Of a stretch of 64,000 nucleotides of DNA, positions 9,713 to 31,029 are shown one piece after another; position 1 is the stretch's first letter, and every line of letters begins with the position of its first letter. Position numbers and translations under genes: made by a program. The stretch covers positions 43,956 through 107,955 of the forward strand of contig CAVVTZ010000005.1 of NCBI GenBank assembly GCA_963751275.1, read 5' to 3'. The DNA comes from an uncultured Gemmatimonadaceae bacterium. GTDB lineage: Bacteria > Gemmatimonadota > Gemmatimonadetes > Gemmatimonadales > Gemmatimonadaceae. Under the pieces are notes generated by a model. The model saw only the letters and a list, made by a program, of their open reading frames with translations, made no database searches and had not been told where the DNA came from.

Positions 9713-10087
9713 CTAGGGCGTGCGCGGCGTCCGGCGAAGGATGACGAGCTCGGTGTCGTTCGGAACGTGCATGTGGAGGCGGCTCTCAGCGACCGGCGCC
9801 AGCTTCGCCCTGCTCGAGAGGTCCCGAATGTCGCTCTCGAGCTGCGAACGCTGCGCATCGAGCTGCGTGCGCCGGGCTTCCAGCGCCTGTAGTTCGACCG
9901 CCTGCGCGCGGCCCACTGCCCTCCTCCAAATGACGCCCAACGACAGCAGGAGGAAACCGAGGATGAGCAGCGCGACCCACGTCCGTCCGCGCGGCGCCCG
10001 TCCTCCGGCGCGGCGCCGTTTCCCGGTGCGGGACGGCTCTCCCCGTGGCGGCGTCGCGCCGCCCCCTGCTACTCGGCCTTTCGCCAT
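9713..10087 (-). CDS. ftsL: FtsL-like cell division protein
   Basis: Basic N-terminus, single TM, coiled coil; lies between rsmH and ftsI. Confidence 0.7.
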   Translation of the reverse strand: MAKGRVAGGGATPPRGEPSRTGKRRRAGGRAPRGRTWVALLILGFLLLSLGVIWRRAVGRAQAVELQALEARRTQLDAQRSQLESDIRDLSSRAKLAPVAESRLHMHVPNDTELVILRRTPRTP

Positions 10088-11019
10088 GCGCGGAGCCGCG
10101 CGCTCCGGGCGCGCGGGTTGCCTGCAATCTCGAGTGCGTCCGCCACCGCGGCTTTTCGCGTGAGCGTCGTGCCGAGCGCATGCCCGCGGCAGGTGCACAC
10201 CGGCTGCCGCGGCGGACAGACGCACGCCGCGCTCCACTGGCGGAAGCCGTGCTTCACGAGCCGGTCCTCCCCCGAGTGGTAGCTAATGACCACCAGTGTC
10301 CCTCCCGGCAGCAACTGGTCGCGCAGCATGGGCAGCGCGGTCTCGAGCCCGGCGAGCTCGTCATTCACCGCGATCCGCACGGCCTGGAAGAGGCGTGCGA
10401 AGTCCGGTGGTCCGGTGCGCGGACCGAGCGCACCGCGGATCGCGCCCACGAGATCGTCGCTCGTCGCATACGGGCGCGTGGCGCGGCGGCGGATGATCTC
10501 GCGCGCCAGCCGGCCGGCGCGCGGCTCGTCGGCGTAGTCGCGGAAGGCGTGCGTGAGTTCCGCTTCATCGGCGCGGTCGAGCCACGCGGCGGCGGTCTCG
10601 GCGCTGTCGTCTCCCATGCGCATGTCGAGGGGCGCGCCTTCGCGGAAGGAGAAGCCGCGCGCGCCGTCGTCGAGCTGGTGCGACGAGACGCCGAGGTCCA
10701 GCAGGATCCCGTCGAATCCATCGCCCGCCGCCGCGGCGACGGCGCGCTCGTCGGAGAAGTTCGCGAGCACGGCGTCGAAAGCGCCGCTCCGTTCATAGGC
10801 GGCGAGGCGCTCGCGCGCCACGGCGATCGCGCGCGGATCGCGGTCGAACCCGGTGACGCGCGCGCCGCGCTCGAGCAGGGCGAGCGCGTGCCCGCCCCCG
10901 CCGAGCGTGCCGTCGAGGACGCGGCGCGCTCCGGAGAGGTGCTCCACGACCGTGGCCGCGAGCACCGGGGCGTGGTACCCGCTCGCCCACTCGGATCGTG
11001 CCGCCGGCGCACCGCTCAT
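10069..11019 (-). CDS. rsmH: 16S rRNA m4C1402 methyltransferase
   Basis: DGTLGGGGH, DLGVSSHQLD, PLDMRM, FQAVRIAVN, ISYHSGEDR, NPRARSA. Confidence 0.97.
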   Translation of the reverse strand: MSGAPAARSEWASGYHAPVLAATVVEHLSGARRVLDGTLGGGGHALALLERGARVTGFDRDPRAIAVARERLAAYERSGAFDAVLANFSDERAVAAAAGDGFDGILLDLGVSSHQLDDGARGFSFREGAPLDMRMGDDSAETAAAWLDRADEAELTHAFRDYADEPRAGRLAREIIRRRATRPYATSDDLVGAIRGALGPRTGPPDFARLFQAVRIAVNDELAGLETALPMLRDQLLPGGTLVVISYHSGEDRLVKHGFRQWSAACVCPPRQPVCTCRGHALGTTLTRKAAVADALEIAGNPRARSARLRAWRKAE

Positions 11020-14403: not shown

Positions 14404-15195
14404 GGATTGAACTTGTTGGCGGCGAGTCCGTCGCGCCACGCCTGCTTCGCATCCTCCTGCTTGCCGTCGAACCAGAGCGCGCGGCCCAACTCGTAGTACG
14501 CTTCGATCAGGTTCGGCCCGATCGCGAGCGTCTTCCGGAAGAAGGTCTGCGCATCCTCGTACATCTCGCGCTCGGCATACGTGAGCCCCAGGTAGAAATG
14601 CGCGTAGAGCGTCGCCTTCCGGTCGTTGTCGAGGCGGATCGCCTTGGAGAGATGCTCGATCGCCTCGCCGAAGATCTTCTTCTTCAGGCAGATGTATCCG
14701 AGGTTGATGCGCGCCAGCGAGTTCGTCGGCTGGCGCATGAGCACCTTCTGGAAGTTGAGCAGCGCCTCGTCGTACTTCTCCTGCAGCATCTGCGCCCAGC
14801 CGAGCAGCGACTCGGTCTGCGGATCGTTCGGCGACAGCTCGAGCGCCTTGAGCAGCGCCTTCTCCGCGCCTTCGTGATCGCCGAGCGAGATGAGGCTCCA
14901 TCCCTTCTCGATGAAGGTCGACGCGCCGATGTGGTCGGCGACCACCGGTCGCTCGCTCACGAACTCCGGCGCGTTCGAGGGCGCGGTGGATTGCTGCAGC
15001 TGCTTCCACCGCTCGACGAGCTTCTTCACATCATCGCGCAGCGCGGTCATCTCGTGCGATCTCCTGCTCCGTCTGCTTGAACAGGCTGATGATCTCGCCC
15101 TTGATCGCGTCGCGCGCGTCCGGCGCGCCCGCGTCCTCGAGGCGGGCGGCGATCGCGTCGTACTGCTGGCGCAGGCTGTTCGCGTCGTCAGTCAT
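14334..15195 (-). CDS. TPR protein with N-terminal helical/coiled-coil region (frameshift ~15055)
   Basis: MTDANSLRQQY... joins the 238-aa ORF carrying ~5 clear TPRs. Confidence 0.8.
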
Positions 15196-15665
15196 GCGTC
15201 GCCGCCTTCACCGCTTTCTTGAGTTCGACCCGCTCGCTCGAGTTGAGCAGATGCGGCACATCCAGGAAGATGATGAGTCCGTCGTCCTGGCGCACGAGGC
15301 CGCGGAGATACTCGGCCTTGAGCCCGCGGAAGACCTTCGGCGGTTCGGCGACCCGGTCCGCCGGGATCGTCGCCACTTCGAGCACGGCATCCACGATCGC
15401 GCCGATCCATTCGTCGCCGGTGGCGAAGATGATGATCCGCGTCTCCGGCCGCGGATCGCGCCGCTCGAGACCGAATCGCGCGCGCAGGTCCACGACCGGC
15501 ACCACTTTCCCCTGATGCTCGATCACGCCCTCGAGCCAGCCGGGCAGGTTCGGCAGCACGGTGGGCTTCGCGTAGCGCAGCACGCGCTCCACCGCCGCCA
15601 CATTCGCCGGCGAAGCGGTCGTCGCCGAGGCGGAACGTCACGACCTGCTGGAGGGCGCCGGTCAT
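15188..15665 (-). CDS. cheW: CheW (frameshift ~15603)
   Basis: VVTFRLG..., LEGVIEHQGKVVPVVDLRARF, IVDAVLEV, IFLDV. Confidence 0.88.
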
Positions 15666-16129
15666 GCGCGCGCTCCGAGGCACGCGCGCACGAGCGCGTC
15701 GGGATCGCACACCGCCACGAGCTCCGCGCCGCGTGGCAGCACGCCCGAGAGCACCGGCTCCGCCGACGCGGGGCCGGGCACCGGGCGCAACGACGCGATA
15801 TCGGCGAGGATCACATCCTCCACGTCGTCCACGATCACGCCCACGCGGCCGCCGCGGCCGCGCACGACGAGCGTGACCTCGTCCCCCGCGCCGCTCCGCG
15901 CGATGCCGAATACCTGCTCCGCCGCGTACACCGGCAGCCGCGCGCCGCGATACTGCGCCACGCCCGCCATGTCGCGCGGCATGCCCGGCAGCGAATGGCG
16001 CTCGAGCGCTTCCACGGCTTCCTCCGCGTTCGCGAGCGGCATGGCGAAGAACTCCTTCCCCACGCGGAAGAGCAGGAATTCCGCGAGCCCGGTGAGCGGA
16101 GCGGCCGGCGCGGCATCGATGGGCGTCAT
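15662..16129 (-). CDS. cheW: CheW-like protein (divergent)
   Basis: FLLFRVGKEFFAMPL, GVAQYRGARLPVY, GVIVDDVEDV. Confidence 0.8.
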   Translation of the reverse strand: MTPIDAAPAAPLTGLAEFLLFRVGKEFFAMPLANAEEAVEALERHSLPGMPRDMAGVAQYRGARLPVYAAEQVFGIARSGAGDEVTLVVRGRGGRVGVIVDDVEDVILADIASLRPVPGPASAEPVLSGVLPRGAELVAVCDPDALVRACLGARA

Positions 16130-17262
16130 GTCCTCTCCTTGCGCGTGACCGGGCGGCCGGCGCGTGCGGGCGTGGAGGGCGGCCGCCGCGCCGCGACGGT
16201 CTCGGCGATCGCGGCCGCGATCTCTCCCAGGGCGACGACGCGCGTCGCGCCCCCCGCCGCCGCGGCGGCCTGCGGCATGCCGAAGATGATCGAGGTCGCG
16301 CGATCCTGCGCGATGCCGGTCCCGCCGGCGTCGCGGATCGCGCGCAGTCCCTCGGCGCCATCGCGCCCCATGCCCGTGAGTACGACGCCGATCGCCGCGC
16401 CGCCCAGGCACTCGGCGGCCGAGCGGAAGAGCGGATCGGCCGCGGGGCGCACGCCCCAGATCGGTGGTCCATCGTCGAGCGCGAGCGCGGGGCCATCGGC
16501 GCCCGCCCGCAGGCGCAGGTGGCGTCCGCCGGGGGCGATGTACACGTGGCCGCGGCGCAGCAACTGGCCATCTTCGGCCTCGCTCACCGGCATGCGGCTG
16601 TGCGCGTTGAGGCGCTCGGCGAGACTGCGCGTGAAGCCGGCGGGCATGTGCTGCACGACGACGACGGCGGCGTCGAGCGTGCGCGGGAGCGCGGGGATCA
16701 CTTCGGCGAGCGCGCGCGGTCCGCCGGTGGAACTCGCGATGGCCACGACGCAAGCGGCGGCGGCGCTGGCCGGCGCTCCGCGCACTTCGGCCGACGGGAT
16801 CCGCCGCGCCGATCCGGCTTCCGTGAACGCCGCGACGCCGCGGAGATTCACCTCGGCGGCGGCGCGGAGCGCCTCGAGCAGCGGACCGCGCACCGTCGCG
16901 AGATCGAGGCTGATCGGGCCGGATGGTTTCTTCAGGAAATCCACGGCGCCGAGTTCCAGGGCGCGGAACACGGGATCGTTCGGCCCGCCGGTGGCCGCGC
17001 CGCTCAGCATCACGACCGGCCGCGGCGATTCCTGCATGATCCGCTCGAGCGCGGCGAGGCCATCGAGCTCCGGCATCTCGATGTCCATCGTCACGATGTC
17101 GGGCTCGAGCGCGCGCACCTTCTTGAGCGCGTCGGCGCCGTGGCGCGCCGTGCCCACCACGCGGAACTCGCCCGACCCGTCGATGAGATCGACGACGAGC
17201 TTGCGCATGAAGGCGCTATCGTCCACCACCAGCACGGTGCGCAGGGCGCTAGAGCTCGACAT
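16126..17262 (-). CDS. cheB: Chemotaxis methylesterase with receiver domain
   Basis: VLVVDDSAFMR, TMDIEMP; catalytic SSTGG, VQHMP, TGMGRDG. Confidence 0.95.
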   Translation of the reverse strand: MSSSSALRTVLVVDDSAFMRKLVVDLIDGSGEFRVVGTARHGADALKKVRALEPDIVTMDIEMPELDGLAALERIMQESPRPVVMLSGAATGGPNDPVFRALELGAVDFLKKPSGPISLDLATVRGPLLEALRAAAEVNLRGVAAFTEAGSARRIPSAEVRGAPASAAAACVVAIASSTGGPRALAEVIPALPRTLDAAVVVVQHMPAGFTRSLAERLNAHSRMPVSEAEDGQLLRRGHVYIAPGGRHLRLRAGADGPALALDDGPPIWGVRPAADPLFRSAAECLGGAAIGVVLTGMGRDGAEGLRAIRDAGGTGIAQDRATSIIFGMPQAAAAAGGATRVVALGEIAAAIAETVAARRPPSTPARAGRPVTRKERT

Positions 17263-17732
17263 TGCCCCTCGCCATCGAGCGCACTTCGACGCGCCCGTCA
17301 CCCGTGTGGAAGTACACGCTGCGGCCGTGTCCGCCACCGACGTCCTCGCCGATCACCGGGATGCGCGCGAGCGCGAGCGCCTTGCGACTCGCCAGGAGAT
17401 TGCGCTCGCCGATCTGCATGCCGGTGGAGGAAAGCAGCGACGTGAACATGCTGGCGCCGCCGACGAGGCGCGCGGTGATGCGGCGGTCCAGCGCGCCCAG
17501 CGCGCGCATCTCGCTCGAGGAGCAGCGGCACCGCGGAGGACGGGAACTTCGCGCGATTGCTGCGGTCGCGCGCCATCGAGTCGCTGGGCAGCAGCACGTG
17601 CGCCAGGCCGCCCACCTGCGCCTCGGGGTCGTGGAGCACGATGGCCACACAGCTCCCCAGGCCGATGCTGGCGATGACCGCATCCCCCTGCGCGACCGCG
17701 GCGTCGGCGACGTGCACGCGGATCTCCTTCAC
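17249..17732 (-). CDS. cheD: Chemoreceptor glutamine deamidase (frameshift ~17513)
   Basis: GLGSCVA, GGLAHVLLP, GGASMF, IGERN, EDVGG..GR. Confidence 0.92.
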
Positions 17733-18550
17733 GACGCCCGGCGGAAGATGCGCTCGCGCGCATCCACGACCTCGAAGCGCGACCGCGCGGGGCCGGTGAG
17801 CGTCTCGACTTTGCCCTGGAAGAGCAGGCCGCCGGGGGCGAGCGCGTCGTGGAACTTCTCGAGCAGCGCCTCCTGGGAGCGGCGGTCGAAGTAGATCGTG
17901 ACGTTGCGGCAGACGATGAGCTCGAACGGGCCGCCGGGCGGCGGATCGGCGAGCAGGTCGTGCCGGCCCAGGCGGACGAGCGCGCGCACGGCCGGCGCGA
18001 TGGCGTACGGCCCGTCGCCGGGGAAGTACGCGGCCCGCAGGTCGGCGGGCACGTCGGGCAGCGTGGACGCGTCGTACACGGCGCGCTCCGCCGCCTCGAG
18101 GCTAGCCGCGTCGATGTCCGTGCCGACGATCTCCACCGCGCGCGCCTTCTTGCCGAGCGCGGCGAGACGACGGTGCACGAGGATCGCGAGCGTGTAGGTC
18201 TCCTCGCCGCTCGCGCAGCCGGCGCTCCAGATGCGCAGCGGCGTGCGCGCCGCGGTGATCAGCGGCGCGAGCACTTCCGTGTCCAGCGCCGCCCACGCCT
18301 CCGGGTTCCGGAAGAAGCGCGTCACGTTGATGGTGAGCGCATCGAGGAGACGGTCGTACTCGGCGCCGTCGCTGTCGAGCACGCGCGCGTAGTCGCGGTA
18401 GGTGTGCACGCCGCGCGCGCGCATGCGCACCGCGATCCGGCGGCGCAGGCACTTCTCCTTGTAGCTCGCGCAGCCGAAGCCGCGCTCGCGCGTGATCTTG
18501 GCGGTGAGCGCCGCGAAATCCGCGTCGGACAAGGCGGTGCCGGCCGTCAT
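17729..18550 (-). CDS. cheR: Protein-glutamate methyltransferase
   Basis: TINVTRFFR, WSAGCASGEE, GTDID, CRNVTIYF. Confidence 0.95.
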   Translation of the reverse strand: MTAGTALSDADFAALTAKITRERGFGCASYKEKCLRRRIAVRMRARGVHTYRDYARVLDSDGAEYDRLLDALTINVTRFFRNPEAWAALDTEVLAPLITAARTPLRIWSAGCASGEETYTLAILVHRRLAALGKKARAVEIVGTDIDAASLEAAERAVYDASTLPDVPADLRAAYFPGDGPYAIAPAVRALVRLGRHDLLADPPPGGPFELIVCRNVTIYFDRRSQEALLEKFHDALAPGGLLFQGKVETLTGPARSRFEVVDARERIFRRAS

Positions 18551-20172
18551 GCGGGCATCGTCCTCACGAGATCGAGGTTCGTGCGGATCACTTCGTTCTC
18601 GGGGTTGAGCGCGAGCGCACGCTCCCAGTAGGCGAGCGCCTGGTCCTTCTCCTGCCACTTGAAGCGGATGTTGCCGAGCTTGAAGTACACGTCATCGCCG
18701 AGCGCCGGGTCGAGCTTGATCGCACGCTGGAACGCCTCGAGCGCCTCGTCGTAGCGCGAGCTGCGATAGAGGCAGTCGCCGAGGTTCTTGAACAGCTGCG
18801 GGATCGAGCCATCCTCGTGCAGGCCGCGCTCGGCCGCCTGCGCGGCGGCGGCCATGTCGCCGCGTCGCTCGTGCACCGCCGCGAGCGTGTTGTAGAGCAC
18901 CGCGGCGTGCGGATGCAATTCGACGCCCTCGTTCACGATCTCGAGCGCGCGGTCGAGCTCGCCGGTGAGCGCGGCGGCGAGCGCCGCATAGTGGAACCAC
19001 GCCGGCGATGGCGGGCGCTTCCCCCAGAGCAGCCGCGATGCGGTGAGCAGCGCATCGGCCTCATCCACGTCGCCGCTCTTGAGCGCGAGCACGCCGAGCG
19101 ACGTGCGGATGCGCGGATCGTCCTGGCCGCCGCGCTGGATCGCCTCCTGCAGCGCCTCGCGCGCGTCGTCGTAGTGGCCCATGCGCTCGAGCGCGTAGGC
19201 GAGGTTGTGGAAGATCGCCGGGCGCACATTGGGCTGCGCGCCGGCCTCGCGCAGCGTGAGCACGGCCTCGGACCACTTCCCCTCGCGCATCGCGACGAGC
19301 CCGAGATAGAATCGCGCGGGGACGTCGGTCTCGTTCAGCTCCACCACGCGGCGGAACTCGCGCGTGGCCTCCTCGAACATCGCGGTCTTGTAGAACGCGA
19401 CGCCGAGGTTGCGGTGCTCCTCCACGCGCGCCTCGCGCACGCCGTCATCCACCGGGCGCGACTTGCCGGCGCGGTGGAGGAAGCCCGCGGTCGCGAGCGC
19501 GTACAGCGCCTTCCCCACCTCGAACTCGCCGATCCCCGAGGCGTCGATGAGCGTCGTGACGTCGCGGCGGCCATCGATGAGCGGGATCAGCTGCTCCTGC
19601 GTCGGCGTCAGCTGCGCCTCGCTCTGCGACAGGCGCGCGCGGTCCACTTCGAAGATGATGTCGAAGCTCGGCACCTTCTTCTCGATCAGGCTCCACTCGT
19701 CCACGCGCCGCGCGCCTTCCAGCAGCAGCGACTCGGGATTGATCGACACGAGGACGTCGTGCTCCTCGGGGCGCATGTCGGCCTCGAAGCTGAACGTCCC
19801 CTGCGTCCACGTGAAGAGGTAGTACACCGCCTCCTCGATCTGCACGCGGATGTAGCGGTGCAGCTCCTCGCGCGTGAGGATCTGCTGCTCGATGAGGATC
19901 TCGCCGAGCCGCTTGCCGCGGTGCGCCTTGCTCTGCGCCTCGATCGCGACGTCGAGCTCGAGCTGCGTGACCACGCCGTGCTTCACGAGCAGGTCGCCAA
20001 GGCGGTCGCGGCGGTTGACGATGGACGCGTACGAGATGCGCCCGCGGTCGAAGAAGATGTAGCCGAAGTTGTTCCGATCGGCGACCGACAGGCAGCCGGT
20101 CTTCTGCCCCATGGCGAGGAGCTGCAGGACGTCGGGGAGCGACGCCTCCTTGAGACTGCCCTTGATCGCCAT
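18547..20172 (-). CDS. DUF4388 (PATAN-like) + MshEN-like + TPR protein
   Basis: GSLKEASLPDVLQLL..KTGCL; tandem RLG motifs; ~8 C-terminal TPRs. Confidence 0.8.
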   Translation of the reverse strand: MAIKGSLKEASLPDVLQLLAMGQKTGCLSVADRNNFGYIFFDRGRISYASIVNRRDRLGDLLVKHGVVTQLELDVAIEAQSKAHRGKRLGEILIEQQILTREELHRYIRVQIEEAVYYLFTWTQGTFSFEADMRPEEHDVLVSINPESLLLEGARRVDEWSLIEKKVPSFDIIFEVDRARLSQSEAQLTPTQEQLIPLIDGRRDVTTLIDASGIGEFEVGKALYALATAGFLHRAGKSRPVDDGVREARVEEHRNLGVAFYKTAMFEEATREFRRVVELNETDVPARFYLGLVAMREGKWSEAVLTLREAGAQPNVRPAIFHNLAYALERMGHYDDAREALQEAIQRGGQDDPRIRTSLGVLALKSGDVDEADALLTASRLLWGKRPPSPAWFHYAALAAALTGELDRALEIVNEGVELHPHAAVLYNTLAAVHERRGDMAAAAQAAERGLHEDGSIPQLFKNLGDCLYRSSRYDEALEAFQRAIKLDPALGDDVYFKLGNIRFKWQEKDQALAYWERALALNPENEVIRTNLDLVRTMPA

Positions 20173-22104
20173 TACCGGAGATCCTCGATCGCGCGGCCCG
20201 ACACGTCAGGCCAGTCCCACACGACCTTCTCCTCGTCGAGGAAGAAGCTGTCGGCCTCGCGGCCATCGATCACGCGCGCCGGCGCGGGCGCGAAGCCGCC
20301 GCCCTCGAGCTCCTTCCGCGCGAACGACGCGTTGAGCGGCACGCCCACGACGCCGGCCGCCTTCACGAGGCGGTCCACCGTGGCCGCGAGCTCATCGACG
20401 TTGGCCACCGCGCGCGCCGAGAGGAAATCGACGAGCACGCGGTCGGCGTGCTGCCCCGACGCGGCGAGCATGCGCGCATAGAGCTTCTCGCGCAGCGAAT
20501 GGTCGGGCGGCTGGATCTCGACCACGAGCCCGCCCTCGAAGCGCGAGCGCAGCCGGTCCTCGAGGCGCTCGATCTGCCGCGGCGCGCGGTCGGCGCCGAG
20601 CACGATCTGCTTGCCGGCCGAGTAGAGGCTGTTGAAGACGTGGAACAGTTCCTCCTGCGTGCGCTCGCCCGTGGCGCAGAGCTGCACGTCGTCGATCAAG
20701 AGCGCATCCACGAGGCGGTAGCGCGCGCGCCACCGCTCGATGGTGCCTTCCTGCAGCGCGGCGATCAGCTCGTCGATGAACTGCTGCGCGTTCACGCACG
20801 CGACCGGCCGCGCGCCGCCGCCCGCCGCGATCATCTCGTTCGCGAGCGCGTGCAGCAGATGCGTGACGCCCACGCCGGGCGGCCCGTACAGGAAGAGCGG
20901 ATTGTACTTCCGCCCGGGTTCGAGCACGACCGTGTCCGCCGCGTGCACCGCGAGCTGGTTGGAGGGCCCCACCTCGAACGTCGCGCGCGTGAGGTCCGGA
21001 TCGGGTCCCGGCGGCGGCTCGGCGCCCCCCATCTGCCGCGCGACCAGCAGCTCCGCCTCGCCCACGCGCTCGGGATCCTTGAACACCTCCGACTCCGCGA
21101 GCACCGGATCGAACCGCATCGCCTCCTGTTCGAGTGCGCGCAGCCGCGCGATCGACGCTTCGTAGCCCTGCAGCAGCGCGTCGACGTCGGGCTCCTCCGT
21201 CTGCTCGAGCGTGCGCTCGAGGAGCGTCGTGCCGTAACCCAGCTGGTGCCAGTACGTCATCGCCTCCACCACGCGCACGCGCCAGGTGTCGATGTGCTGC
21301 GCCACCACGTCGCTGAGGTCGGAGAGGAAGCTCGCGAACTCCTGGCCGCGCGCCGGCGCCTGCGCCATCACCGGGGCCGGCATCGGGCTTCTCACCGAGC
21401 AGCTCGCGCACGTTCCGCACCGTCACCTCGGCCTCGCCCAGCGTCTGGCAGGCGATGAGGCGGTTGAGCGCGCCCTGCAGCTCGCGCACGTTGGAGAAGT
21501 TCATGCGCGCCACTTCGTCGAGCACGCCAGGCTCGAACGCCGCCTGGCGCTCCTCGCACTTCGCGCGCAGGATCGCGACGCGCGTCTCGTAGTCGGGCAG
21601 CCCGACATCCACGACCAGGCCGCCGGCGAAGCGCGAGATGAGCCGCTCGTCGAGGTCCGCGATCTCGTTCGGCGGCCGGTCGCTCGTGAGGATGATCTGC
21701 TTCCCCGCGCGCTGCAGCGCGTTGAAGAGGCGCAGCATCTCGCTCTGCGTCTCGCGCCGGCCGGCGAGGAACTGCACGTCATCCAGCAGCAGGATGTCCA
21801 CGTCCTGGAAGCGCTGCTTGTAGTTCTCGATCGTGCCCGACGACACGGCGGCCGTGAGCTCCTCGACGAACTCGTCGAGCGTGATGTACAGCGAGCGCAG
21901 GCTGGGCTGCAGCTGGATCGCCAGGTGGCCCACGGCGATCATGAGGTGCGTCTTGCCGAGCCCCGAGCTGCTGTAGATGAAGAGCGGGTTGTACGCCGTG
22001 CCGGGCGCCTGGGCCACGGCCTTCGCGGCGGAGACCGCGAGACGATTGGCCGACCCGACGATGTAGTTCTCGAAGCGATAGCGCGGATCGAGCTCCACCG
22101 TCAC
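20172..22104 (-). CDS. DnaA/Hda-family protein with two tandem AAA+ domains and no DNA-binding domain (frameshift ~21385)
   Basis: FENYIVGSAN..YNPLFIY..GLGKTH..DDVQFL..RLISRF..NVRELQGAL, then a second FEVGPSN..YNPLFLYGPPGVGVTH..DDVQ..RLRSRF; GTG start overlaps reconstructed mglA stop. Confidence 0.85.
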
Positions 22105-22710
22105 CGGCTCCCCGCGGGCGCCGCGGCGCTCAGCCGCCGCAGGACGAGCTCGCGCGATGCCGCGCAGCGTCTCGAACACGCCCGCGCCGTGCAGCGCGTC
22201 CGCCGCGAAGGACGGCACGCCGCGAAAATTCAGCGCGTCCTCCAGCGCGGGCACGCCGAGGATCATCTCCGACGGCAGGTCCTGCTTGTTGTACTGGATC
22301 ACGAGCGGCATGGTGCGCACGTCGATGCCGTGCTCGGCCGCGTTCGTGTGCAGGTCCTGCATGCTCTCGATGTTCTCCTGCAGCTGGCGCGCCTGGCTGT
22401 CGGCCACGAACACCACGCCGTCGGCGCCCTGCAGCACGAGCTTCCGGGTGGTGTGGTAGTACACCTGGCCCGGCACCGTGTAGAGCTGGAAGCGCGTGGT
22501 GAATCCGGAGATCATCCCGAGATCGAGCGGCAGGAAGTCGAAGAAGAGCGTGCGGTCGGTCTGCGTGGCGAGCGAGACCATCTTCCCTTTCCGGTCGCGC
22601 GGCACCTGCTCGTAAATGTAATGCAGGTTCGTCGTCTTCCCCGAACGGCCGGGGCCGTAGTAGACGATCTTGCAGGTGATCTCGCGGGTGGCGTAGTTGA
22701 CGAGGGACAC
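22101..22710 (-). CDS. mglA: MglA-family small Ras-like GTPase (frameshift ~22152)
   Basis: KIVYYGPGRSGKTTN, TDRTLFFDFLPL, YTVPGQV, DGVVFVADS, QYNKQD. Confidence 0.93.
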
Positions 22711-22717
22711 GGCGCGC

Positions 22718-23233
22718 TCAGGAAGTCGGGGGGACGATCGCGTCCCCGTTGGCGGCGCCGGCGGGCACGCGGCCGAAGAGCGCCGCGAGACTCCGCGCGA
22801 GATCCTGCTCGAGGCTCGCGGCCGCGAGCGGCGGTCCGTCGGCGCGCGGCGGCACCACCGTGGCGAGGCGCGCCGAGAGCGTGCCGAAGAACACGCGCAC
22901 CAGGCCGAGTGAACTCTCGTCGCCGAACGCCGTCAGAAGGATGAACGCGTCGCGCGCCGTGCGCACCTCGCCGATGAACACGTGGCGGTCGCGGCCGGCA
23001 TGATAGAGCTCGCGGAAGGGCTTCCCGTCGAGTTCGCGGCCGAGCTGGCCGGCCGACGCATGGATGCCGGCGGCGAGCGCGCACGCCGCCATCACATCCA
23101 CCGCGCGCGTGAAACCGAACTGGCCCAGCACCTGGCCGCTCGGGTGCAGCAGCAGCGCGAAGAGCACGCGCGCGTCGTCCACGAACTCCTGGAGCGGCGC
23201 CTCCACCCAGGCTTCGGCGACGTGGGTCTTCAC
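22718..23233 (-). CDS. MglB-like roadblock/LC7 protein (divergent)
   Basis: LLHPSGQVLGQ, ALAAG, SSLGLVR; directly upstream of mglA. Confidence 0.7.
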   Translation of the reverse strand: MKTHVAEAWVEAPLQEFVDDARVLFALLLHPSGQVLGQFGFTRAVDVMAACALAAGIHASAGQLGRELDGKPFRELYHAGRDRHVFIGEVRTARDAFILLTAFGDESSLGLVRVFFGTLSARLATVVPPRADGPPLAAASLEQDLARSLAALFGRVPAGAANGDAIVPPTS

Positions 23234-23577
23234 GTGAGCGACTCCACGCTCTGGAGCATCGCGCCGCGGATGAGCCCGATGTGCGCGCGCGGCTCGGCGA
23301 GCGTGATGATCACGAGTCCCTCGCGGCCGACCACGCACACGTGGCCGTCGGTGGCCTCCAGCTGGAGGAAGGTCACCTGCCCCAACCCCGCCGCCTGCGA
23401 CGACAGGCGCGCGCGCCGGTAGAGCGCGGCCGCGAGCGCCGCGACGACGCTCTCCGGCACCCCCACCTGGACGTTCGAATCCACGATGATCCCGTCGCGC
23501 TCGCCCACCACGAGGCAACCCAGCACGCCGCGCTGGCGGATGAGCGTCGCGAGGAGATCCTCGAACGGGGAGCTCAT
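23230..23577 (-). CDS. Roadblock/LC7 domain protein
   Basis: GVLGCLVVGERDGIIV..AALAAAL..HIGLIR. Confidence 0.85.
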   Translation of the reverse strand: MSSPFEDLLATLIRQRGVLGCLVVGERDGIIVDSNVQVGVPESVVAALAAALYRRARLSSQAAGLGQVTFLQLEATDGHVCVVGREGLVIITLAEPRAHIGLIRGAMLQSVESLT

Positions 23578-24419
23578 CCGACCTCCGACAGCCACATCGT
23601 GGCGCGGCGCACGCAGCGGTCGAGCACGCGCCGCACGAATCCGAGCGGCATCGCGTGCGATGCCGCGACGAGCACCATCGAGTCGTCGAGCGCCGGCGCG
23701 ATCGCGACCACGGCGACATCGGTCTCGTACAGGACGAGCTTCCACTCGCCGAGATCGAGATGGCGCACGGTGCGCTGCGCATCATCGCGCACGCCGGAGA
23801 GCTGCGCGCCCACCTCCTGCGCGACGTCCTCGCCGGTGGCGCTCACGTAGGCGCCCGCGGTCACGAGGCCATCGGAGTTGAGCAGGAGCGCCGTCTGCTC
23901 GCCGTCGCCCAGGATGTCGGCGAACAGGAAGTGCGCTTCCTCCTCTACGCGACGCTGCGCCGCCTCGAGCTCGGCGGGCCCCGGTTCGCTCGCGCCGTTG
24001 CCCGCGAGCCGCGCGTAGCGCAGCAGGCGGCGCACCATGCGCAGCGCCGTCGAGATCGACGCGTCGGAGCGGTCGCCCGACGCCGCGGCGCTGAGGTGGT
24101 CCTCCGCCTCCTCGAGTTTCCCCTGCTTGTACAGGACGTAGCCCATGCCCTTGCGCGCGCCGACGTGGTTCGGCGCGAGGCGCAGCACCATGTCCCACTC
24201 GTCGAACGCCTGCTCGAGCTCGTTGCGGTCCACGCAGATGCGCGCGAGCAGATCGTGCGCGTCGGCGTTGTGCGCATGGCGCTCGAGGCCGCGCGTCGCG
24301 ACGCGCAGCGCGAGATCGAGCTGCCCGCCCTTCCGCAGCGCTTCGCCGAGCTGCAGGAAGACCAGGCTCGACGGGTCGCGGGCGAGTTCGTCGCTGAGGC
24401 GGCGGATCTCGTCAGACAT
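23574..24419 (-). CDS. TPR + roadblock/LC7 domain protein
   Basis: N-terminal DPSSLVFLQLGEALRK TPRs; C-terminal LLNSDGLVTAG..LGEW..PLGFVRR. Confidence 0.8.
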   Translation of the reverse strand: MSDEIRRLSDELARDPSSLVFLQLGEALRKGGQLDLALRVATRGLERHAHNADAHDLLARICVDRNELEQAFDEWDMVLRLAPNHVGARKGMGYVLYKQGKLEEAEDHLSAAASGDRSDASISTALRMVRRLLRYARLAGNGASEPGPAELEAAQRRVEEEAHFLFADILGDGEQTALLLNSDGLVTAGAYVSATGEDVAQEVGAQLSGVRDDAQRTVRHLDLGEWKLVLYETDVAVVAIAPALDDSMVLVAASHAMPLGFVRRVLDRCVRRATMWLSEVG

Positions 24420-25818
24420 CGCCGAGCTCCTTCATCGCATTCCGCAGTCGCGCGGCCGCATCGGCCACGGCACGCACGTGCGAGGTGTCGGGGGCATCCG
24501 GCGCGAGGCGCTGGTAGCGCTCCCAGCCGGCGACGGCGTCCGCGAGATCGCCGCGCGACGCGGCGCAGGCGCCCAGCAGCAGGTACAGCGCGGGATTGAG
24601 CGCGTCGCGCTCGAGCGCCGCGCTCACCGTCTCCAACGCATCGTCCACCTGCCCCCCCTTGAGCTGGGCCCGCGCGAGCACGATCCGCGCCTCGACGGAG
24701 CCGTTGCTCGCGGCGACAGCCGCGGTCGCGGCATGCACCGCCTCATTGACGTGGCCATCGCGGAGCGCCGCGTGCGCGCGCTCGAGATGCGCCAACGCAT
24801 CGTCGCCTTCGCGCGCGACGGTCTGCGTCATCCGGGTCGTGCGCGTCGCGCGCACGGGCCGCGGGGGCGGCGGCGGCGCGGACGGTGGCGCGGGCGGCGG
24901 CGCGGCCACCGGCTCGGCCGCCGGCGCGGCGTCGGGCGGCGTCATCACCGACGCGCGATGCATCCCCGTGTGCTCGAGCGACGGCACGTGCAGCAGCGAT
25001 CCGGGCAGCGACACGACGTCCGGCGCTTCGGCGGCGCGCGCGGGCGGCGTCGCGCGGCGCGGCGGCAGCGACGGCGGAGGCGGCGGCGTGCCCGTGCCCG
25101 GCCGCAGCTCGACGATCCCGGTGGTCACCAGCCCGTAGATCACGCGCGCCACGTCGAACTCGCTCATCGACGTCGAGTTCGAGATCTCGCGCAGATCGCG
25201 CGATCCGTCGATCTGCGCGAGCACTTCCCACTCCTTGGGCAGCAGGTCGAGCGCGCCGGCGTGATCGGTGTCCACGCTCGAGAGCACCGGGACCACGCCG
25301 AGGTGCGGCACCTTCCCTTCGATGAGCGACCACTCATCGATGCGGCGCGCGCCTTCCATGAGCAGCGACTCGGTGGAGATGCGGATGTCCGCCTCCACCG
25401 GCGCGTCCGTCACCTCGCCTTCCTCGAAGGAGAAGAAGCCTTCGCGCCACGACATCATCTCGAAGACCACTTCTTCCACCTGGATGCGCACCTGGCGCTC
25501 CAGCTCCTTGCGCGAGAGCGCGCCGGCCTCGACGAGGATCGCGCCGAGTTGCCGCTTGTCCCCCTCGCGCCGCTGCTGTTCGCGCATGCGCGTGAGATCG
25601 CCCTCGGTGATCTTGCCCGCGCGCAGCAGCAGTTCGCCCAACCGGTGCGGATTGCTGCGGATGGACGCCGAGAGCACGCCGCCCCGGTCGAAGTACACGG
25701 TACCCTGGTTGTCGCGCAGCACCGACGTGACGGTGAGCGTCCCGGTCTTCCGGCTCAGGTCCAGCAGCTGGAAGACATCGTGGATGCCGAGCTCGCGGAG
25801 CGGGCCTTCGATCGCCAT
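24412..25818 (-). CDS. DUF4388 + MshEN-like + Pro-rich linker + TPR protein
   Basis: MAIEGPLRELGIHDVFQLL..KTGTL; ESLLMEGARRIDEW; C-terminal TPRs. Confidence 0.8.
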   Translation of the reverse strand: MAIEGPLRELGIHDVFQLLDLSRKTGTLTVTSVLRDNQGTVYFDRGGVLSASIRSNPHRLGELLLRAGKITEGDLTRMREQQRREGDKRQLGAILVEAGALSRKELERQVRIQVEEVVFEMMSWREGFFSFEEGEVTDAPVEADIRISTESLLMEGARRIDEWSLIEGKVPHLGVVPVLSSVDTDHAGALDLLPKEWEVLAQIDGSRDLREISNSTSMSEFDVARVIYGLVTTGIVELRPGTGTPPPPPSLPPRRATPPARAAEAPDVVSLPGSLLHVPSLEHTGMHRASVMTPPDAAPAAEPVAAPPPAPPSAPPPPPRPVRATRTTRMTQTVAREGDDALAHLERAHAALRDGHVNEAVHAATAAVAASNGSVEARIVLARAQLKGGQVDDALETVSAALERDALNPALYLLLGACAASRGDLADAVAGWERYQRLAPDAPDTSHVRAVADAAARLRNAMKELGDV

Positions 25819-28535
25819 CAGCTGGCCTCCTGGCGATGCCGGAAGATCCGGAGCAGGTCGGACGCCGTGCGCATCTCGCGCCGCGCGTTCTTGCCGAACT
25901 CGCCGTCGGGCTCGAGCTCCACGACGCGTTCCCATTCGCCGATCGCTTCGCGATAGCGGTGCTGGTCGGCCAGCAGCACGCCATGCAGGAAGAGCGCGCC
26001 CACGTGCCGCGGGTCGAAGCGCAGCACGCGCTCGATGGAGATGGCGGCGTCGCGCGGCCGGTCCAGCTCCAGCAGCGTCTCGGCGAGCACGAGCAGCGCC
26101 TCCACGTTGTACGGGTCGCGGCGCAGCAGGTCCACGAGCGGCGAGAGCGCGTCCTTCGCGCGGCCGAAGCGCCGGCGCACCTGCGCGAGCGCGAGGGTCG
26201 CCTCGACGTACGTGGGCACCGCGTCCAGCGCCGCGAGCAGTTCGGTCTCGGCGCCGGTCGCATCGTCCCGCTCGGCGAGCAGCCGGCCGAGTTCGTAGTG
26301 CACCACGGCGACGTCCGGATCGAGATCGAGCGCGTTCTTGTACGCCGCGATCGCCCCCTCCACGTCGCCGGCGGCGCGCGCCACATTGCCGAACTGGCGC
26401 AGCACATCGGCGCGCGCCGGCGCCAGCCGCCGCGCGTTCTTGAGCAGCTCGCGCGCCGCCGCCGGATCGCCCGCGTCGGCGCGCGCGCTGGCCACCAACA
26501 GGATCGATTCGACGGTGGATGGATCCGCGAGCAGCAGTTCCTCCGCCACCGCGCGCGCCTGCTCGGAGCGTCCCAGCAGCAGCAGCGCCCGCGTCTCGCC
26601 CGCGAGCGCGCGCGGCGCGTTGGCCGTGACGCTCCGCGCGTTCTTGTACCGCTCGAGCGCCTCGCCGTGCAGCCCCTGCCGGAGGAAGATGTCGCCGAGC
26701 AGGATCAGCCCTTCGCCGGTGTTCGCGCCGCGCACGAGCGCGCGGTTCACCTCGGCAGCCGCGCGGTCGAGCATCCCCTTCGAGAGATACTCCACCGCCA
26801 TCGCGTACGCCGTCTCGAGCGGCGCGGCGGCGGTCTCCACCGGCGGCGGCGTGAGCGGCTTCAGCTCCGTGAACAGCGCATCGAGCCGCGCGGAGTCGAA
26901 GGCGAACGTCTCCACCGCCTGCTCCACGCGCTGCGCGTCGCCCAGCGCGGGGGCGATGGAGAGATCGGGATCCTCGTACTCGAGATCGATCGCGAGCTCG
27001 AACTTCTGGCGCACGTAGAACGGATCCAGCTCCAGCGCGCGGCGCGTGGCGCGCAGCGCCCCCTCGAAGTCGCCGAGGTTCGAGAGCGTGAAGCCGAGGT
27101 TGTAGTGCGCCTCGGCGTAGTTGGGCCGCGTGTGGATCGCGCGGCCGAAGGCGTTGCGCGCGTCCTCGTACTTCTTGAGCTCGGCGAGCACGAGGCCGAT
27201 GCCGTTCCACGCCACCGGCTGCTCGGGATCCACCGTGAGTCCCTGGCGGTACGCCTCGAGCGCGAGCTGCAGCCGCTTCCCCTGGTAGAGCAGCAGCGCG
27301 AGGTTGAGCCACGCCTTCACGAAACCCGGATGCGCGGCGAGCGCGGCGCGGAACGCATTGATCGCGGCGTCGGTGTTGCCGCCGTGGTACTCGGCGACGC
27401 CGAGGTTGTTGTGCGCGATGGCGTACGCCCCGTCGAGCGCCAGGGCGCGACGGTAGCTCTCCGCGGCTTCGCGATGCCGGCCCTCCTGATGCAGCGCGAC
27501 CCCGCGCTCGCACCAGAGCTTGGGGCTCTCACTCTCCTCTTCGAGCAGCCGGTCGTACAACTCGATCGCCGACTTCGGATCGCGCTTGAGCAGGTGTACT
27601 TCGGCCATCGCCTGCAGCACCAGCGCGCGGTCTTCCTCCCGCTCGAGGGCGAGCCGGTATTCCCGCAGCGCCTCGGCGTAGTAGCCCTTCTGCCGGAAGG
27701 CGAGGCCGAGGTTGTAGTGCGCGAGCCCGCCCTCCGCCGCGACCTCCATCTGCGACGAGCGCCGCTCGTGCCGCTGCGGTACGAGCTCCTCGTACTTCGC
27801 GGCGTTGTAGCGGTCGATCGACAGGTTCGCCTGCGCGCGCGAGAGCGAGGGGTTGAGCTGGATCGCGCGCTTCGTGGAGGCGCGCGCCTCCTCGTGGCGG
27901 CCGAGGTCGCCGAGGACGAAGCCGAGCAGGTAGTGCGCGTCCGAGTTGTCCGGGTTGATGTCGATCGAGCGGCGGAGCGCGACGAGCGCCTCCTCGTTCA
28001 GTCCGCGGTTGTAGAGCACCTCGCCGATGTAGAAGCTGATGAGCGGGCTCTTCGGCTCCAGCGCCAGCGCGCGCTCGAACCAGCGCTGCGCGTGCTCGAG
28101 ATCGCCGCTCGCCTTCTCCGCGAGGCCGAGCTGCACGATCGCGCCGGCGTCATTGGGATGATGCTCGAGGATCGCGGTGAACTCGGCGACCGCCTCGGGC
28201 ACGTCGCCGAGCGCGGCGTAGGCGCGTCCCAGCTCCCAGCGCGCGTCGCGGTCGTGCGGATGCGAGCGGAGCCGGTCGCGCAACTCGGCGACGCGCCGGT
28301 CGTAATAGCCGGTGTTGAAGTACGCGACCTCGAGATTGCGCTGCGCCACCTGCATCTTGGGGTCCAGCTCCAGCGCCTGCTCGAACGACGATACCGCTTC
28401 GGCGTACATCCCCTTGTTGTAATAGAGGACGCCGAGGTTGTTGTGCGCCCCCGCATCGGATGGATCGATGCGCCGCGCGAACGACCGCAGGATGTCACGG
28501 TCGCGCTGCGACACGGGGGACAAGGGGCTCGTCAC
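25818..28535 (-). CDS. Large cytoplasmic TPR protein (905 aa)
   Basis: About 20 TPR-like repeats (AHNNLG, AHYNLG, AWNGIG); no signal peptide. Confidence 0.9.
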   Translation of the reverse strand: MTSPLSPVSQRDRDILRSFARRIDPSDAGAHNNLGVLYYNKGMYAEAVSSFEQALELDPKMQVAQRNLEVAYFNTGYYDRRVAELRDRLRSHPHDRDARWELGRAYAALGDVPEAVAEFTAILEHHPNDAGAIVQLGLAEKASGDLEHAQRWFERALALEPKSPLISFYIGEVLYNRGLNEEALVALRRSIDINPDNSDAHYLLGFVLGDLGRHEEARASTKRAIQLNPSLSRAQANLSIDRYNAAKYEELVPQRHERRSSQMEVAAEGGLAHYNLGLAFRQKGYYAEALREYRLALEREEDRALVLQAMAEVHLLKRDPKSAIELYDRLLEEESESPKLWCERGVALHQEGRHREAAESYRRALALDGAYAIAHNNLGVAEYHGGNTDAAINAFRAALAAHPGFVKAWLNLALLLYQGKRLQLALEAYRQGLTVDPEQPVAWNGIGLVLAELKKYEDARNAFGRAIHTRPNYAEAHYNLGFTLSNLGDFEGALRATRRALELDPFYVRQKFELAIDLEYEDPDLSIAPALGDAQRVEQAVETFAFDSARLDALFTELKPLTPPPVETAAAPLETAYAMAVEYLSKGMLDRAAAEVNRALVRGANTGEGLILLGDIFLRQGLHGEALERYKNARSVTANAPRALAGETRALLLLGRSEQARAVAEELLLADPSTVESILLVASARADAGDPAAARELLKNARRLAPARADVLRQFGNVARAAGDVEGAIAAYKNALDLDPDVAVVHYELGRLLAERDDATGAETELLAALDAVPTYVEATLALAQVRRRFGRAKDALSPLVDLLRRDPYNVEALLVLAETLLELDRPRDAAISIERVLRFDPRHVGALFLHGVLLADQHRYREAIGEWERVVELEPDGEFGKNARREMRTASDLLRIFRHRQEAS

Positions 28536-29152
28536 GCGATCCGGATGGCGCGCAGGATCACGCGCAGCGAAGCGAAGTCCGGCAGCAGCAGGAAGAAGCC
28601 GCGCAGATGGTCCGCCTGGTCATCGAACAGGAACTGCGTCTCCACCGCGAACACCGTGTCGCGGTCGGCGCCGAACTGCGCGTGCGCCGTCGTGAGCACC
28701 GCGGCCGACATGTCCACCACGAGACTCGGCGGCGAGGGCAGCAGCATGAGACCCAGGAAATCGCTGAGCGCGTTGAGATACGCGCCGCTCAGGATGTTGC
28801 CGGCTTCCTTCAGCGCGCTCTGTTCGAGCTCGGCGAAGGGCGCGGACGTGTCGCGCGGCCGCCGGAGCATCAGCTGGGCGAGGCGGATCGCCGTGCTGCG
28901 CGGGAAGACGAGCAGCGAGCGCCCCGTCAGGTCGCCGAGCATCTGCATCATCACGGCCGCGATCGGCTCCTCTTCATCCGCGATCTGCTGCGGCACGTCC
29001 TCGAGCGCCGCGATCGTGATGTGCGGCACCGAGATCATGATCCGGCTGTTGGTCATGAGCGAGAGCGCGGTGGCGGCGTGGCCGGCGCCGATGCTCGCCG
29101 TCTCGCGGAGCGCGTCGAGCTCCTTCGGCGTCAGGGAGAGAAGGTCGGACAT
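28532..29152 (-). CDS. cheC: CheC-family CheY-P phosphatase
   Basis: DALRETASIGAGHAATALS; SALKEAGNIL; LPSPP. Confidence 0.9.
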   Translation of the reverse strand: MSDLLSLTPKELDALRETASIGAGHAATALSLMTNSRIMISVPHITIAALEDVPQQIADEEEPIAAVMMQMLGDLTGRSLLVFPRSTAIRLAQLMLRRPRDTSAPFAELEQSALKEAGNILSGAYLNALSDFLGLMLLPSPPSLVVDMSAAVLTTAHAQFGADRDTVFAVETQFLFDDQADHLRGFFLLLPDFASLRVILRAIRIA

Positions 29153-29162
29153 GCGCGCTCCG

Positions 29163-31029
29163 CTAGAGTAGACTGCCGACATCGAGGATCAGCGACGGCG
29201 CCCCATCCGAGAGGATCGTGGCCCCGCTGAACAGTGCCATCCCGCCGCGCACCGGATCGAACTGCTTGACCACGATGTCCTGCTGTCCGGCCAGTTCATC
29301 CACCACGAGCGCGGCGTGCTTCTCGCCGACCTCCACGATCACCACCTGCTGCATCGGCGCCGCCGAGGCGGCCAGCGACAGCCGGTTCCGCAGCCGCACC
29401 ACCGGCAGCACGTCCTCGCGCAGGATGATGGCCTCGCGGCCGCGCACGGTGCGCACGCTCGCCGCATCCAGCTCCACCGTCTCGGTCACGTGCGTCATCG
29501 GCACGGCGTACGTCTCCTCGCCCACCTTGGCGAGCATCGCCCGCACGATCGCGAGCGTGAGCGGCAGCCGCGCGGTGACGGTGGTGCCTTCGCCCGACAC
29601 CGTCCTGATCTCGACCGATCCGCCCAGCGCGCGCACGCGCGTGAGCACCACGTCGATCCCTACGCCGCGTCCCGACAGATCGGTCACCCGCTCCGCCGTC
29701 GAGAAGCCCGGGCGCGAGATGAGCCGCACGAGCTCCTCGTCCGGCAGCGCTTTCACCGTCGAGAGCACGAGGCCCATCGTGCGCGCCTTCGCGAGCACCT
29801 TCGCCCGGTCGATCCCGCGGCCGTCGTCGCTCACGCGGATCGTGACCGCCGAGCGCTCGCGCGAGATCATGAGCTTGAGCGCGCCCTCGCGCGGCTTGCC
29901 CGCCGCCTCGCGCTCGGCCGGCATCTCGATCCCGTGGTCCACCGCGTTGCGCAGCAAGTGCATGATCGGCTCGCCGATCTCGTCGAGCATCGAGCGGTCG
30001 AGCTCGCTCTCCTGCCCCTCCACCGTGAACGAGACCTCCTTGTGCAGCGCCCGCGCCGCGTCGCGCACGAGGCGCGGGAAACGGTCGAACACCTGCGCCA
30101 CGGGCACCATGCGGCAGCGCATGATCTCGTCCTGCATCTCGCCGATGAGCCGCGCGCCCTGCGCGACAGTCTCCTCGAGCGCGGGATCGCCCGCCGCGCC
30201 GGCCATCTGCTGCAGCTGCCCGCGCGCGATCACGAGCTCGCCCACCAGGTTCATCAACGCATCGAGGCGCGTGAGCTCGATGCGCACGTGTCGCGTGCCG
30301 CCCGCCGACGGTTCGGCCGCGGGCGCGACGCTCACCGCGGCGCCGTCGATCGTCACGCTCGCGACGTCCCCCGCCGTGCGCAGCGCCTCCGCCACCAACG
30401 AAGGCTCCACGCTCGGCGCGAGACGGATCGTGAACTCGCGCTCGAATTCTTCGCGCTGCAGCGCCGCCAGCGCGGGTTCCACCGCCACCACCTTCCCGTA
30501 CTCCGCCGCCCGCTTCACCACCAGGAACGCCCGCGCCCCCTTGAGCGCGATCCCCTCCTTCAGCACGACGCGAATGCTGATCCCGCGCTTGCCGCGGTAC
30601 TTCGCGACCTTCGCCTCGGGCTTGCGCCGGCCGGCAGCCGCCGGCCGCGCCCCTTCGGCGTAGTCCTTGAGCTTCCGAGCCATCGCCAGCGCCGCCGGAT
30701 CGTCGGCCTTCCCCGCCACCGCCGACGCGATCGCCTTCTCCAACGCGTCCACGCCCTTGAACAGCAGGTCCATCAGGTCGGGTGTCACCCGGCGCACCTT
30801 CTGCCGCACGCCGTCGAGCAGCGACTCCAGTCTCGTGCGCCAGCGCCGTCACGCCGGTGTAGCCCATCGTCGCGCTCATCCCCTTCACGCTGTGCACCGC
30901 GCGGAACATCCACGCCACCGGCTCGGTGGCGCGCGGCGCGCGCTCGAGCGAGAGCAGGAGATGGTTGATCGCCGAGAGCTGCTCGCGGCTCTCCGTGCGG
31001 AACAGGTCGGCGTAGCGCGTGAGGTCCAT
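29163..31029 (-). CDS. cheA: Chemotaxis histidine kinase (frameshift ~30832)
   Basis: Hpt FRAVHSVKGM; P2-like domain; HLLRNAVDHG, DDGRGI, GFST, SGRGVG; CheW-like P5. Confidence 0.95.

Follow-up and report, generated by a model that had tools for sequence, protein, structure and literature searches.

A two-headed DnaA-like protein from a cell-polarity and chemotaxis gene cluster of Gemmatimonadota

AAA+ domains of the DnaA family have known roles in starting replication and controlling that start, in loading helicases and in assisting transposition. In a Gemmatimonadaceae bacterium from soil, two such domains are found on one protein, whose gene lies on the minus strand of contig CAVVTZ010000005.1 inside a cell-polarity and chemotaxis gene cluster. 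The whole stretch of DNA analysed, hereafter the window, comprises 64,000 nucleotides of this contig (C5 of genome G000) with a G+C content of about 70%, and belongs to a 3.1-Mb genome in 14 contigs that is scored 83% complete. The family to which this two-headed protein belongs is specific to Gemmatimonadota and is organised, over about 643 amino acids (aa), as a first DnaA-type head (D1), a helical module of 109 aa, a second head (D2) and a disordered C-terminal peptide.

Both heads resemble domain III of DnaA, with its two-helix insertion, Walker A and Walker B motifs, box VII arginines and lid, and D2 further retains the equivalents of the DnaA H and B motifs. Unlike DnaA, the protein is devoid of domains I, II and IV, carries two heads per chain around the 109-aa module, has Glu at the position of R245 in D1 and ends with a conserved peptide; its gene does not stand beside dnaN, and a true dnaA is present elsewhere in the genome. 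With Hda and HdaA, it shares AAA+ domains derived from DnaA, the lack of a DNA-binding domain and a conserved arginine finger, but it differs from them in being two-headed, in scoring below the cut-off of the model TIGR03420, in having no N-terminal extension and in its genomic context. As for the tandem AAA+ proteins p97/Cdc48 and Rix7, the structural resemblance is poor (Foldseek template modelling (TM) score 0.22-0.33, root-mean-square deviation (rmsd) >22 A), and the initiator clade is by far the better match for both heads.

Regarding the neighbouring genes, the passages available of the survey of MglA proteins place Group 1 MglA proteins in Gemmatimonadetes and record PATAN genes near some mglA genes (Wuichet and Sogaard-Andersen, 2014; PMC4316618). 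As in the MglA-MglB modules with PATAN neighbours presented there, mglA, two Roadblock/LC7 genes and a PATAN-TPR gene are gathered here in one cluster; unlike the mglA loci of those passages, the present one has a DnaA-like gene lying between mglA and its PATAN-TPR neighbour. The term DnaA occurs 0 times in the text of PMC4316618 and no AAA+ neighbour is named in its available passages, the supplementary table S2 on gene neighbourhoods lying outside this statement. In literature searches judged by titles and abstract openings, no published description of the two-headed protein was found.

Two unequal heads around a helical module

On the minus strand of the window, D1 is a DnaA-type AAA+ domain with lid (21400..22104; PF00308 E 3.2e-57) exhibiting the motifs GLGKT (21949-21963), LLLDDVQ (21772-21792), RLISRF (21628-21645) and NVREL (21478-21492). 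The second DnaA-type AAA+ domain, D2 (20304..21011; PF00308 E 4.3e-50), exhibits GVGVT (20862-20876), LLIDDVQ (20682-20702), RLRSRF (20538-20555) and NVDEL (20388-20402), that is, the Lys of the P-loop is replaced by Val (codon GTC) and the Arg at the sensor II position by Asp (NVDEL vs NVREL). Between the two heads, the helical module (21024..21350) starts with motif A, EFASFLSDL (21315-21341), and the C-terminal tail (20175..20246) holds motif B (FFLDEEKVVWDWPD...GRAIEDLR, with FFLDEEKVVWDWPD at 20205-20246), of which the residues E625, K626, W629 and W631 are invariant in a 24-sequence alignment (A1). Every motif listed in an earlier note on this DNA is present on the minus strand, the tail FFLDEEKVVWDWPD included. 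The two DnaA-derived AAA+ domains deprived of domains I and IV described in that note are likewise recovered: PF00308 is matched twice (E 2.8e-109 for the whole protein in the Pfam scan), no family of domain I or IV appears at E<=1, and PF00308 begins at the start of the open reading frame (ORF), residues 5-166 corresponding to profile positions 1-162, with no residues left for a domain I. The best solved structural match is domain III of B. subtilis DnaA (8bv3; TM 0.94, rmsd 1.8 A, 44% identity), and further matches are 2z4r, 1l8q, 2hcb and 3r8f, including the DnaA of T. maritima and A. aeolicus. In the AlphaFold model, the mean predicted local distance difference test (pLDDT) is 82.9, with a disordered tail of low pLDDT at residues 602-643.

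In E. coli DnaA, Val211 and Arg245 belong to the H and B motifs for binding to single-stranded DNA and Arg285 is the arginine finger, according to the available parts of two published papers (PMC9198467; PMC5716108). When both heads of 24 two-headed sequences are aligned with the DnaA of E. coli K-12 (NC_000913.3), the equivalent of the Walker A residue K178 is Lys in all 24 D1, and in D2 it is Lys in 20, Arg in 1 and Val in 3; the equivalents of the Walker B residues D235/D236 are kept in D1 (24/24), and the sensor II residue R334 is Arg in 24/24 D1 and 15/24 D2. The position of V211 (H motif) is occupied by Thr, His or Asn in D1 (24/24) and by Ile or Val in D2 (23/24), that of R245 (B motif) by Glu in every D1 and by Arg in 23/24 D2. 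The arginine finger R285 is present in all D1 and in 23/24 D2, and R227 is matched by Arg in only 1/24 D1 against 23/24 D2. The residues R227 and L290 belong to the 'AID' motifs. No mention of these two residues was found in the accessible part of PMC5716108. Within alignment A1, D1 is further characterised by invariant GLGKTH, Walker B DD, both box VII arginines and sensor II NxR. Judging from these residues, D1 appears to have kept its nucleotide site whole and lost the DNA-contact residues, and D2 appears to be the reverse.

Neither head alone reaches the cut-off of the NCBIfam DnaA model TIGR00362 (343.9 bits), D1 scoring 297 bits and D2 221 bits over profile positions ~102-336, i.e. domain III, and D1 is ~48-50% identical to the DnaA of Gemmatimonadota. 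Once both heads of the G005 copy (L007:784-2712) are summed, the score amounts to 516.7 bits, which is above the cut-off and therefore leads to misleading 'DnaA' names. Several sources give the name 'chromosomal replication initiator protein DnaA', JGI doing so for many two-headed proteins. The canonical dnaA lies on contig C7, with PF00308 at 240.8 bits, PF08299 (Bac_DnaA_C) at 91.4 bits as the only match to this family in the genome, and dnaN immediately downstream; in line with the earlier note, the two-headed gene is neither adjacent to dnaN nor the only dnaA of the genome, the canonical one having domain IV. The possibility of an Hda-like regulator raised in the same note finds no backing in the model scores, since TIGR03420 gives 83.2 and 82.3 bits per head and 161.8 bits for the whole protein for a cut-off of 194.8. 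Hda has a beta-clamp-binding motif at its N-terminus. No N-terminal segment precedes the AAA+ domain that could hold a clamp-binding motif, the start of the ORF being the start of the domain. The two-headed protein is most likely not a replication initiator.

The segment between the heads, formerly considered as a helical linker, is not just a linker but a conserved domain of 109 aa, found in other proteins too, which no Pfam family covers (Pfam scan, E<=1). Modelled alone, it reaches a pLDDT of 86.8 and a predicted TM score (pTM) of 0.70, and Foldseek returns no match for it against the PDB at E<=0.001. With VIA-align, the best hits are a helical adhesin repeat (6gv5, Z 5.7) and EzrA (Z 5.5); such values are common for helical bundles and no fold was assigned. 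A profile search with the module gathers 406 representatives at E<=0.001, members of the family included. Giant Lys/Glu-rich proteins carry 7-22 tandem copies of the module (P0121-P0124, P0130, P0200), whose consensus is W..GEGY.T..LE ... F.DP.R..EAE; some of these repeat proteins are named as Thermoplasmata/Thermoplasmatota (archaea), one having an N-terminal DUF835 and one a C-terminal zinc ribbon.

Reading frames, orthologues and reduced forms

As assembled, the window does not contain the single ORF of ~640 aa that had been described at 20172..22104. This interval measures 1933 nt, which is no multiple of 3, and its one-frame translation from 22104 to 20172 gives a clean DnaA-like domain up to ...VRNVRELLGEKPDAGPG, then Arg/Ala-rich nonsense. 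The D1 frame is an ORF of 772 aa (20392..22710) that opens with mglA, and the D2 frame is an ORF of 407 aa (20172..21395) in a different frame. In the DNA alignment with G005, from the same genus (91.7% DNA identity over 4.2 kb and 95% protein identity over the protein of the second domain), the window has one base more at 22153 and at ~21372, and the other four gaps are two compensating pairs. Both extra bases lie in G/C runs. The one at 22153 falls within the last mglA codons, of which it shifts ~17, putting mglA in frame with D1 in the window; the one between the domains, located to 21371..21376 (run CCCCGG on the minus strand) by alignment to G005 and to contigs of relatives, separates the D1 and D2 frames. 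In G005, mglA ends with ...RGIAELVLRRLSAAAPAGNR and a GTGA overlap onto one 643-aa ORF holding both domains. Logan contigs from four soil/rhizosphere runs (share of sampled words <=0.25), aligned to 20100-22800, lack the base at 21373 in 4/4 runs and the base at 22153 in the 3/3 runs that cover it. The absence of both bases from G005, the closest relative, and from all contigs of the four metagenomes that cover them makes indel errors during assembly their most likely origin.

Without the two bases, the gene arrangement initially described holds. The mglA gene (22101..22710, minus strand, GTG start at 22710) then ends with ...ELVLRRLSAAAPAGSR and a TGA at 22101-22103, coupled by GTGA to one ORF of ~643 aa. 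The translational coupling is borne out at both ends, with the GTG at 22104 overlapping this TGA and the TAA at 20172-20174 overlapping the ATG of the DUF4388/TPR gene (TAATG). Among the orthologues, 15/15 full-length ones are encoded by one ORF, of 634-686 aa, as the single-ORF check proposed earlier had foreseen. As a side observation, the PATAN-TPR gene of G005 is broken by two single-base insertions (L007 ~3582 and ~3840) and is intact in the window, and the assemblies of both the window and G005 seem to carry indel errors, at ~1 per 2 kb at this locus.

The 41/41 related genomes searched match the query, mostly with both domains in one open frame of 640-740 aa, and database names place the protein in Gemmatimonadaceae, e.g. 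'DnaA/Hda family protein [Gemmatimonadaceae bacterium]'. The homologue set was established with the G005 orthologue as query, for which 120 clusters are listed, most of ~640 aa. Two P-loops are readable in 115/120 of the listed clusters, where D1 has GLGKT in 115/115 and D2 has Lys in 103 and Val or Ile in 12; GVGVT also occurs in three N-terminally cut sequences, which brings the Val/Ile total to 15/120, and in P0085 and P0089 the second site is outside the P-loop search pattern. In alignment A1, GVGVT is restricted to G005, G003 and P0010, the rest having Lys (20) or Arg (1). Since all 15 Val/Ile clusters are those >=84% identical to the G005 orthologue, the loss of the D2 lysine is clade-limited, namely a trait derived within the shallow, genus-level clade of the window itself. 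The earlier portrait of one intact and one degenerate site is thus not a family trait, as 103/115 readable clusters keep the D2 Lys; orthologues with an intact second site, named beforehand as evidence against it, are those same clusters. In the Val clade, D2 is not decaying, the identity between G005 and G003 being 86.8% for D2 and 90.6% for D1. Four unpublished genomes (G012, corresponding to alignment row L016, G086, G125 and G204) are among the counts, and no statement rests on them alone.

Beyond the two-headed form, which is also encountered in other orders (G058, G246, G143), reduced forms are found at the same place. A one-headed form, consisting of D1, the helical module and the tail, lies between mglA and the PATAN-TPR gene in G078 and G134, examples of one-headed proteins being a 401-aa ORF (L029:1471-2676) and the Longimicrobium protein P0155; a divergent one-headed gene is also located between mglA and PATAN-TPR in G305. 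Further reduced, ORFs for mini-proteins of 69 aa in G022 (L036:1478-1687) and 73 aa in G016 (L037:1427-1648) lie between mglA and PATAN-TPR, with a comparable C-terminal segment at the same position in G021 (L039 ~4197-4376, minus strand). These three short pieces keep only motif A, EFxxF[LVM]xD[LI]S..[VI]A, and motif B, [IV]V[WE]WP....R.IEE[LM]R, in genomes that retain mglA and PATAN-TPR, with a CheR match downstream in G022 and G016. A search with the 69-aa mini-protein, by a method that needs shared 5-residue words, returns itself and one 74-aa relative, and the ESM Atlas gives no usable match for it; with the whole protein, the ESM Atlas gives only Gemmatimonadota two-headed clusters and short DnaA-like fragments. 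Among Gemmatimonadaceae genera without a detected module, a close mglA (67-75% identical) is present in 4/5 genomes checked, namely G305, G022, G016 and G021; in the fifth, G100, the match is weaker (66% over residues 1-148). Elsewhere in these genomes lies a second MglA-like gene with 61-66% identity over residues 1-148/161, located in G016 (C3:149464-149904), G021 (C25:75619-76062), G022 (C3:1002088-1002561), G100 (C37:87251-87694, the only match to this query there) and G305 (C1:3345563-3346009).

In a tree of 63 AAA+ domains from a quick maximum-likelihood search, which excludes P0010 because it duplicates L008, D2 forms one clade (support 99), the DnaA of the phylum another (97), and D1 together with all one-headed forms a third (100). 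The root being placed at midpoint, with no outgroup from other phyla or Hda, the order of the split between D1, D2 and DnaA is not fixed by this tree. The branching of D1 and D2 follows taxonomy, and the two-headed state is therefore old and vertically inherited; the one-headed forms nest at >=3 places within the D1 clade, and heads have apparently been lost repeatedly. With the module profile, exactly one locus per genome is detected in 199/301 genomes of the phylum. By family, the counts are 54/69 (f1), 121/125 (f2), 3/3 (f3), 4/6 (f4), 1/1 (f5), 0/23 (f6), 11/47 (f7), 4/4 (f8) and 0/3 (f9), and 0/19 in the families of other classes (f10-12).

A proposed adaptor of the MglA module and rival explanations

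In relatives, the conserved run of genes is Roadblock-mglA-AAA+-PATAN/TPR-CheR. The position between mglA and the DUF4388 (PATAN)/TPR gene, already pointed out in the earlier note, is kept throughout the sampled loci, with mglA directly upstream and PATAN-TPR directly downstream in 17/17 loci where both flanks are available, those of two further relatives being cut by contig ends. The same order mglA, AAA+, PATAN-TPR is encountered in another order-level family (L026). In the host, the polarity module is embedded in a chemosensory CheA-CheW-CheR-CheB cluster. This kept position therefore favours a reading in terms of the MglA module, namely that the two-headed protein would be an accessory ATP-dependent adaptor of the MglA/MglB-like/PATAN-TPR polarity module and not an initiator, to which a probability of about 0.6 can be given. 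Because motifs A and B, as well as the position relative to mglA and PATAN-TPR, survive every reduction, the two motifs are read as contacts with the neighbours, and they would bind either or both of MglA and the PATAN-TPR protein. The AAA+ heads would add a nucleotide-dependent head-to-tail association of the DnaA type, where the arginine finger of one domain would reach the ATP site of the other, and this association would control how motifs A and B are presented. In this mechanism, the constant site where ATP is bound and hydrolysed would be D1; D2 of the Val clade, which would no longer bind nucleotide normally but keeps its arginine finger, would act as finger donor or structural partner for D1.

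Several points weigh against such an adaptor. The partner contacts are drawn solely from gene order and motif retention, and the AlphaFold model gives no confident domain arrangement (pTM 0.48). In family f7, the two-headed gene adjoins PATAN-TPR with no mglA within the 1.5-kb flank. The contigs compared for the reading frames come from relatives and not from the same strain, as indicated by the word share of <=0.25. Besides, D2 retains the equivalents of the H and B motifs by which DnaA binds single-stranded DNA, which are lost in D1, and a role in polarity leaves this unexplained; their retention may leave room for a nucleic-acid or DnaA-directed role of D2. A bolder version of the adaptor, which is tentative and stands a lesser chance of being right, pictures a DnaA-type filament former that has left replication and become part of a polarity switch run by a small GTPase. 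In their ATP-bound state, the heads would polymerise head-to-tail at a pole and display EFxxFLxDL and VWDWP...IEELR to capture MglA and/or PATAN-TPR, hydrolysis would time reversal under chemosensory control, and through D2, given its retained ssDNA-contact residues, the switch could also be connected with the chromosome or with DnaA.

Because the pattern of residues in D1 and D2 is left unexplained by a role in polarity, a replication regulator is still to be considered, unlikely as it is. The heads, above all D2, would then co-assemble with DnaA-ATP filaments or bind the single-stranded origin, and would cap these filaments or stimulate hydrolysis like Hda, linking the chemosensory/polarity pathway to initiation. 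Such a regulator would suit heads that are both nearer to DnaA than to any other family, as reflected by the 297 and 221 bits on TIGR00362, with arginine fingers retained in both and the V211 and R245 equivalents kept in D2 (23/24 each). It fits badly, however, with a protein that lacks domains I and IV as well as any N-terminal segment for clamp binding, that stays far under the cut-off of the Hda model and whose D1 invariably carries Glu at the position of R245; moreover, the gene never adjoins dnaA or dnaN here, and the loss of D2, and in some genera of both heads, spared the mglA-PATAN neighbours and the two motifs.

The two remaining explanations appear more improbable still. If the two frameshifts were real, the gene and mglA would be truly broken here, yielding an MglA-D1 fusion and a separate D2, or a decaying pseudogene. 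Both extra bases are indeed present in the assembly as given, the contigs lacking them belong to relatives, and the gene is reduced or lost elsewhere in the family; yet each site is an insertion of one base within a G/C run, comparable to the two that G005 has in a PATAN-TPR gene intact in the window, and a completeness of 83% despite only 14 contigs fits an indel-rich assembly. Past each break, the sequence is conserved in the shifted frame (D2 95% identical to G005), and the GTGA and TAATG overlaps are intact, which also argues against a truly broken gene. Alternatively, the protein could be an assembly or remodelling ATPase acting on a protein substrate of another machine encoded or controlled nearby (chemosensory arrays or type IV pili, for example), with MglA as a mere neighbour. 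The Che genes on both sides of the locus would agree with this, as would the two-headed gene of f7, whose immediate neighbour is PATAN-TPR and not mglA. Against it, structural matches of the p97/Rix7 type are poor (TM 0.22-0.33, rmsd >22 A), the heads are dispensable in several genera and AAA+ domains of the initiator clade are not known to act as unfoldases.

Surrounding genes and significance

The gene belongs to a larger cluster, read 5' to 3' on the minus strand as CheW, CheA, CheC/X, a 933-aa TPR protein, a TPR + Roadblock protein, a Roadblock protein, mglA and the two-headed gene, and continuing with PATAN-TPR, CheR, CheB, CheW and a TPR protein. Upstream of mglA are thus found, all on the minus strand, CheW (31433-31984), CheA (29166-30848), CheC/CheX (28535-29188), the TPR + Roadblock/LC7 protein (23574..24419) and the MglB-like Roadblock/LC7 protein (22721..23230; PF03259 E 7.1e-07). 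On the other side and on the same strand, the two-headed gene is followed by the 541-aa protein with PATAN (DUF4388) and TPR (18547..20172; PF14332 E 7e-39, together with TPR families), the CheR methyltransferase (17729..18658; PF01739 E 1.3e-50), CheB with receiver and methylesterase (16129..17352) and a second CheW (15191..15637). At 24412-28619 on the minus strand, the 933-aa TPR frame (25821-28619) is overlapped by a 1033-aa frame, the C-terminal half of which has a second PATAN-like segment (MAIEGPLRELGIHDVFQLLDLSRKTG...); from this overlap, either another break in frame or a pair of overlapping genes can be suspected upstream of the Roadblock genes. Directly after the cluster come division and cell-wall genes, namely mraW, a transpeptidase PBP and a Mur ligase (6243-11019, minus strand).

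For those annotating genomes of this phylum, the family is a trap, because the summed heads pass the NCBI DnaA equivalog cut-off and automatic annotation can report a false second dnaA. For experimental work, the natural series of two heads, one head and a 70-aa peptide points to two short motifs as testable binders. If the proposed adaptor role is true, the phylum-wide use of this protein in an MglA/Roadblock/PATAN cluster would be a new job for the DnaA fold and would add a new component to the bacterial Ras-like GTPase modules.

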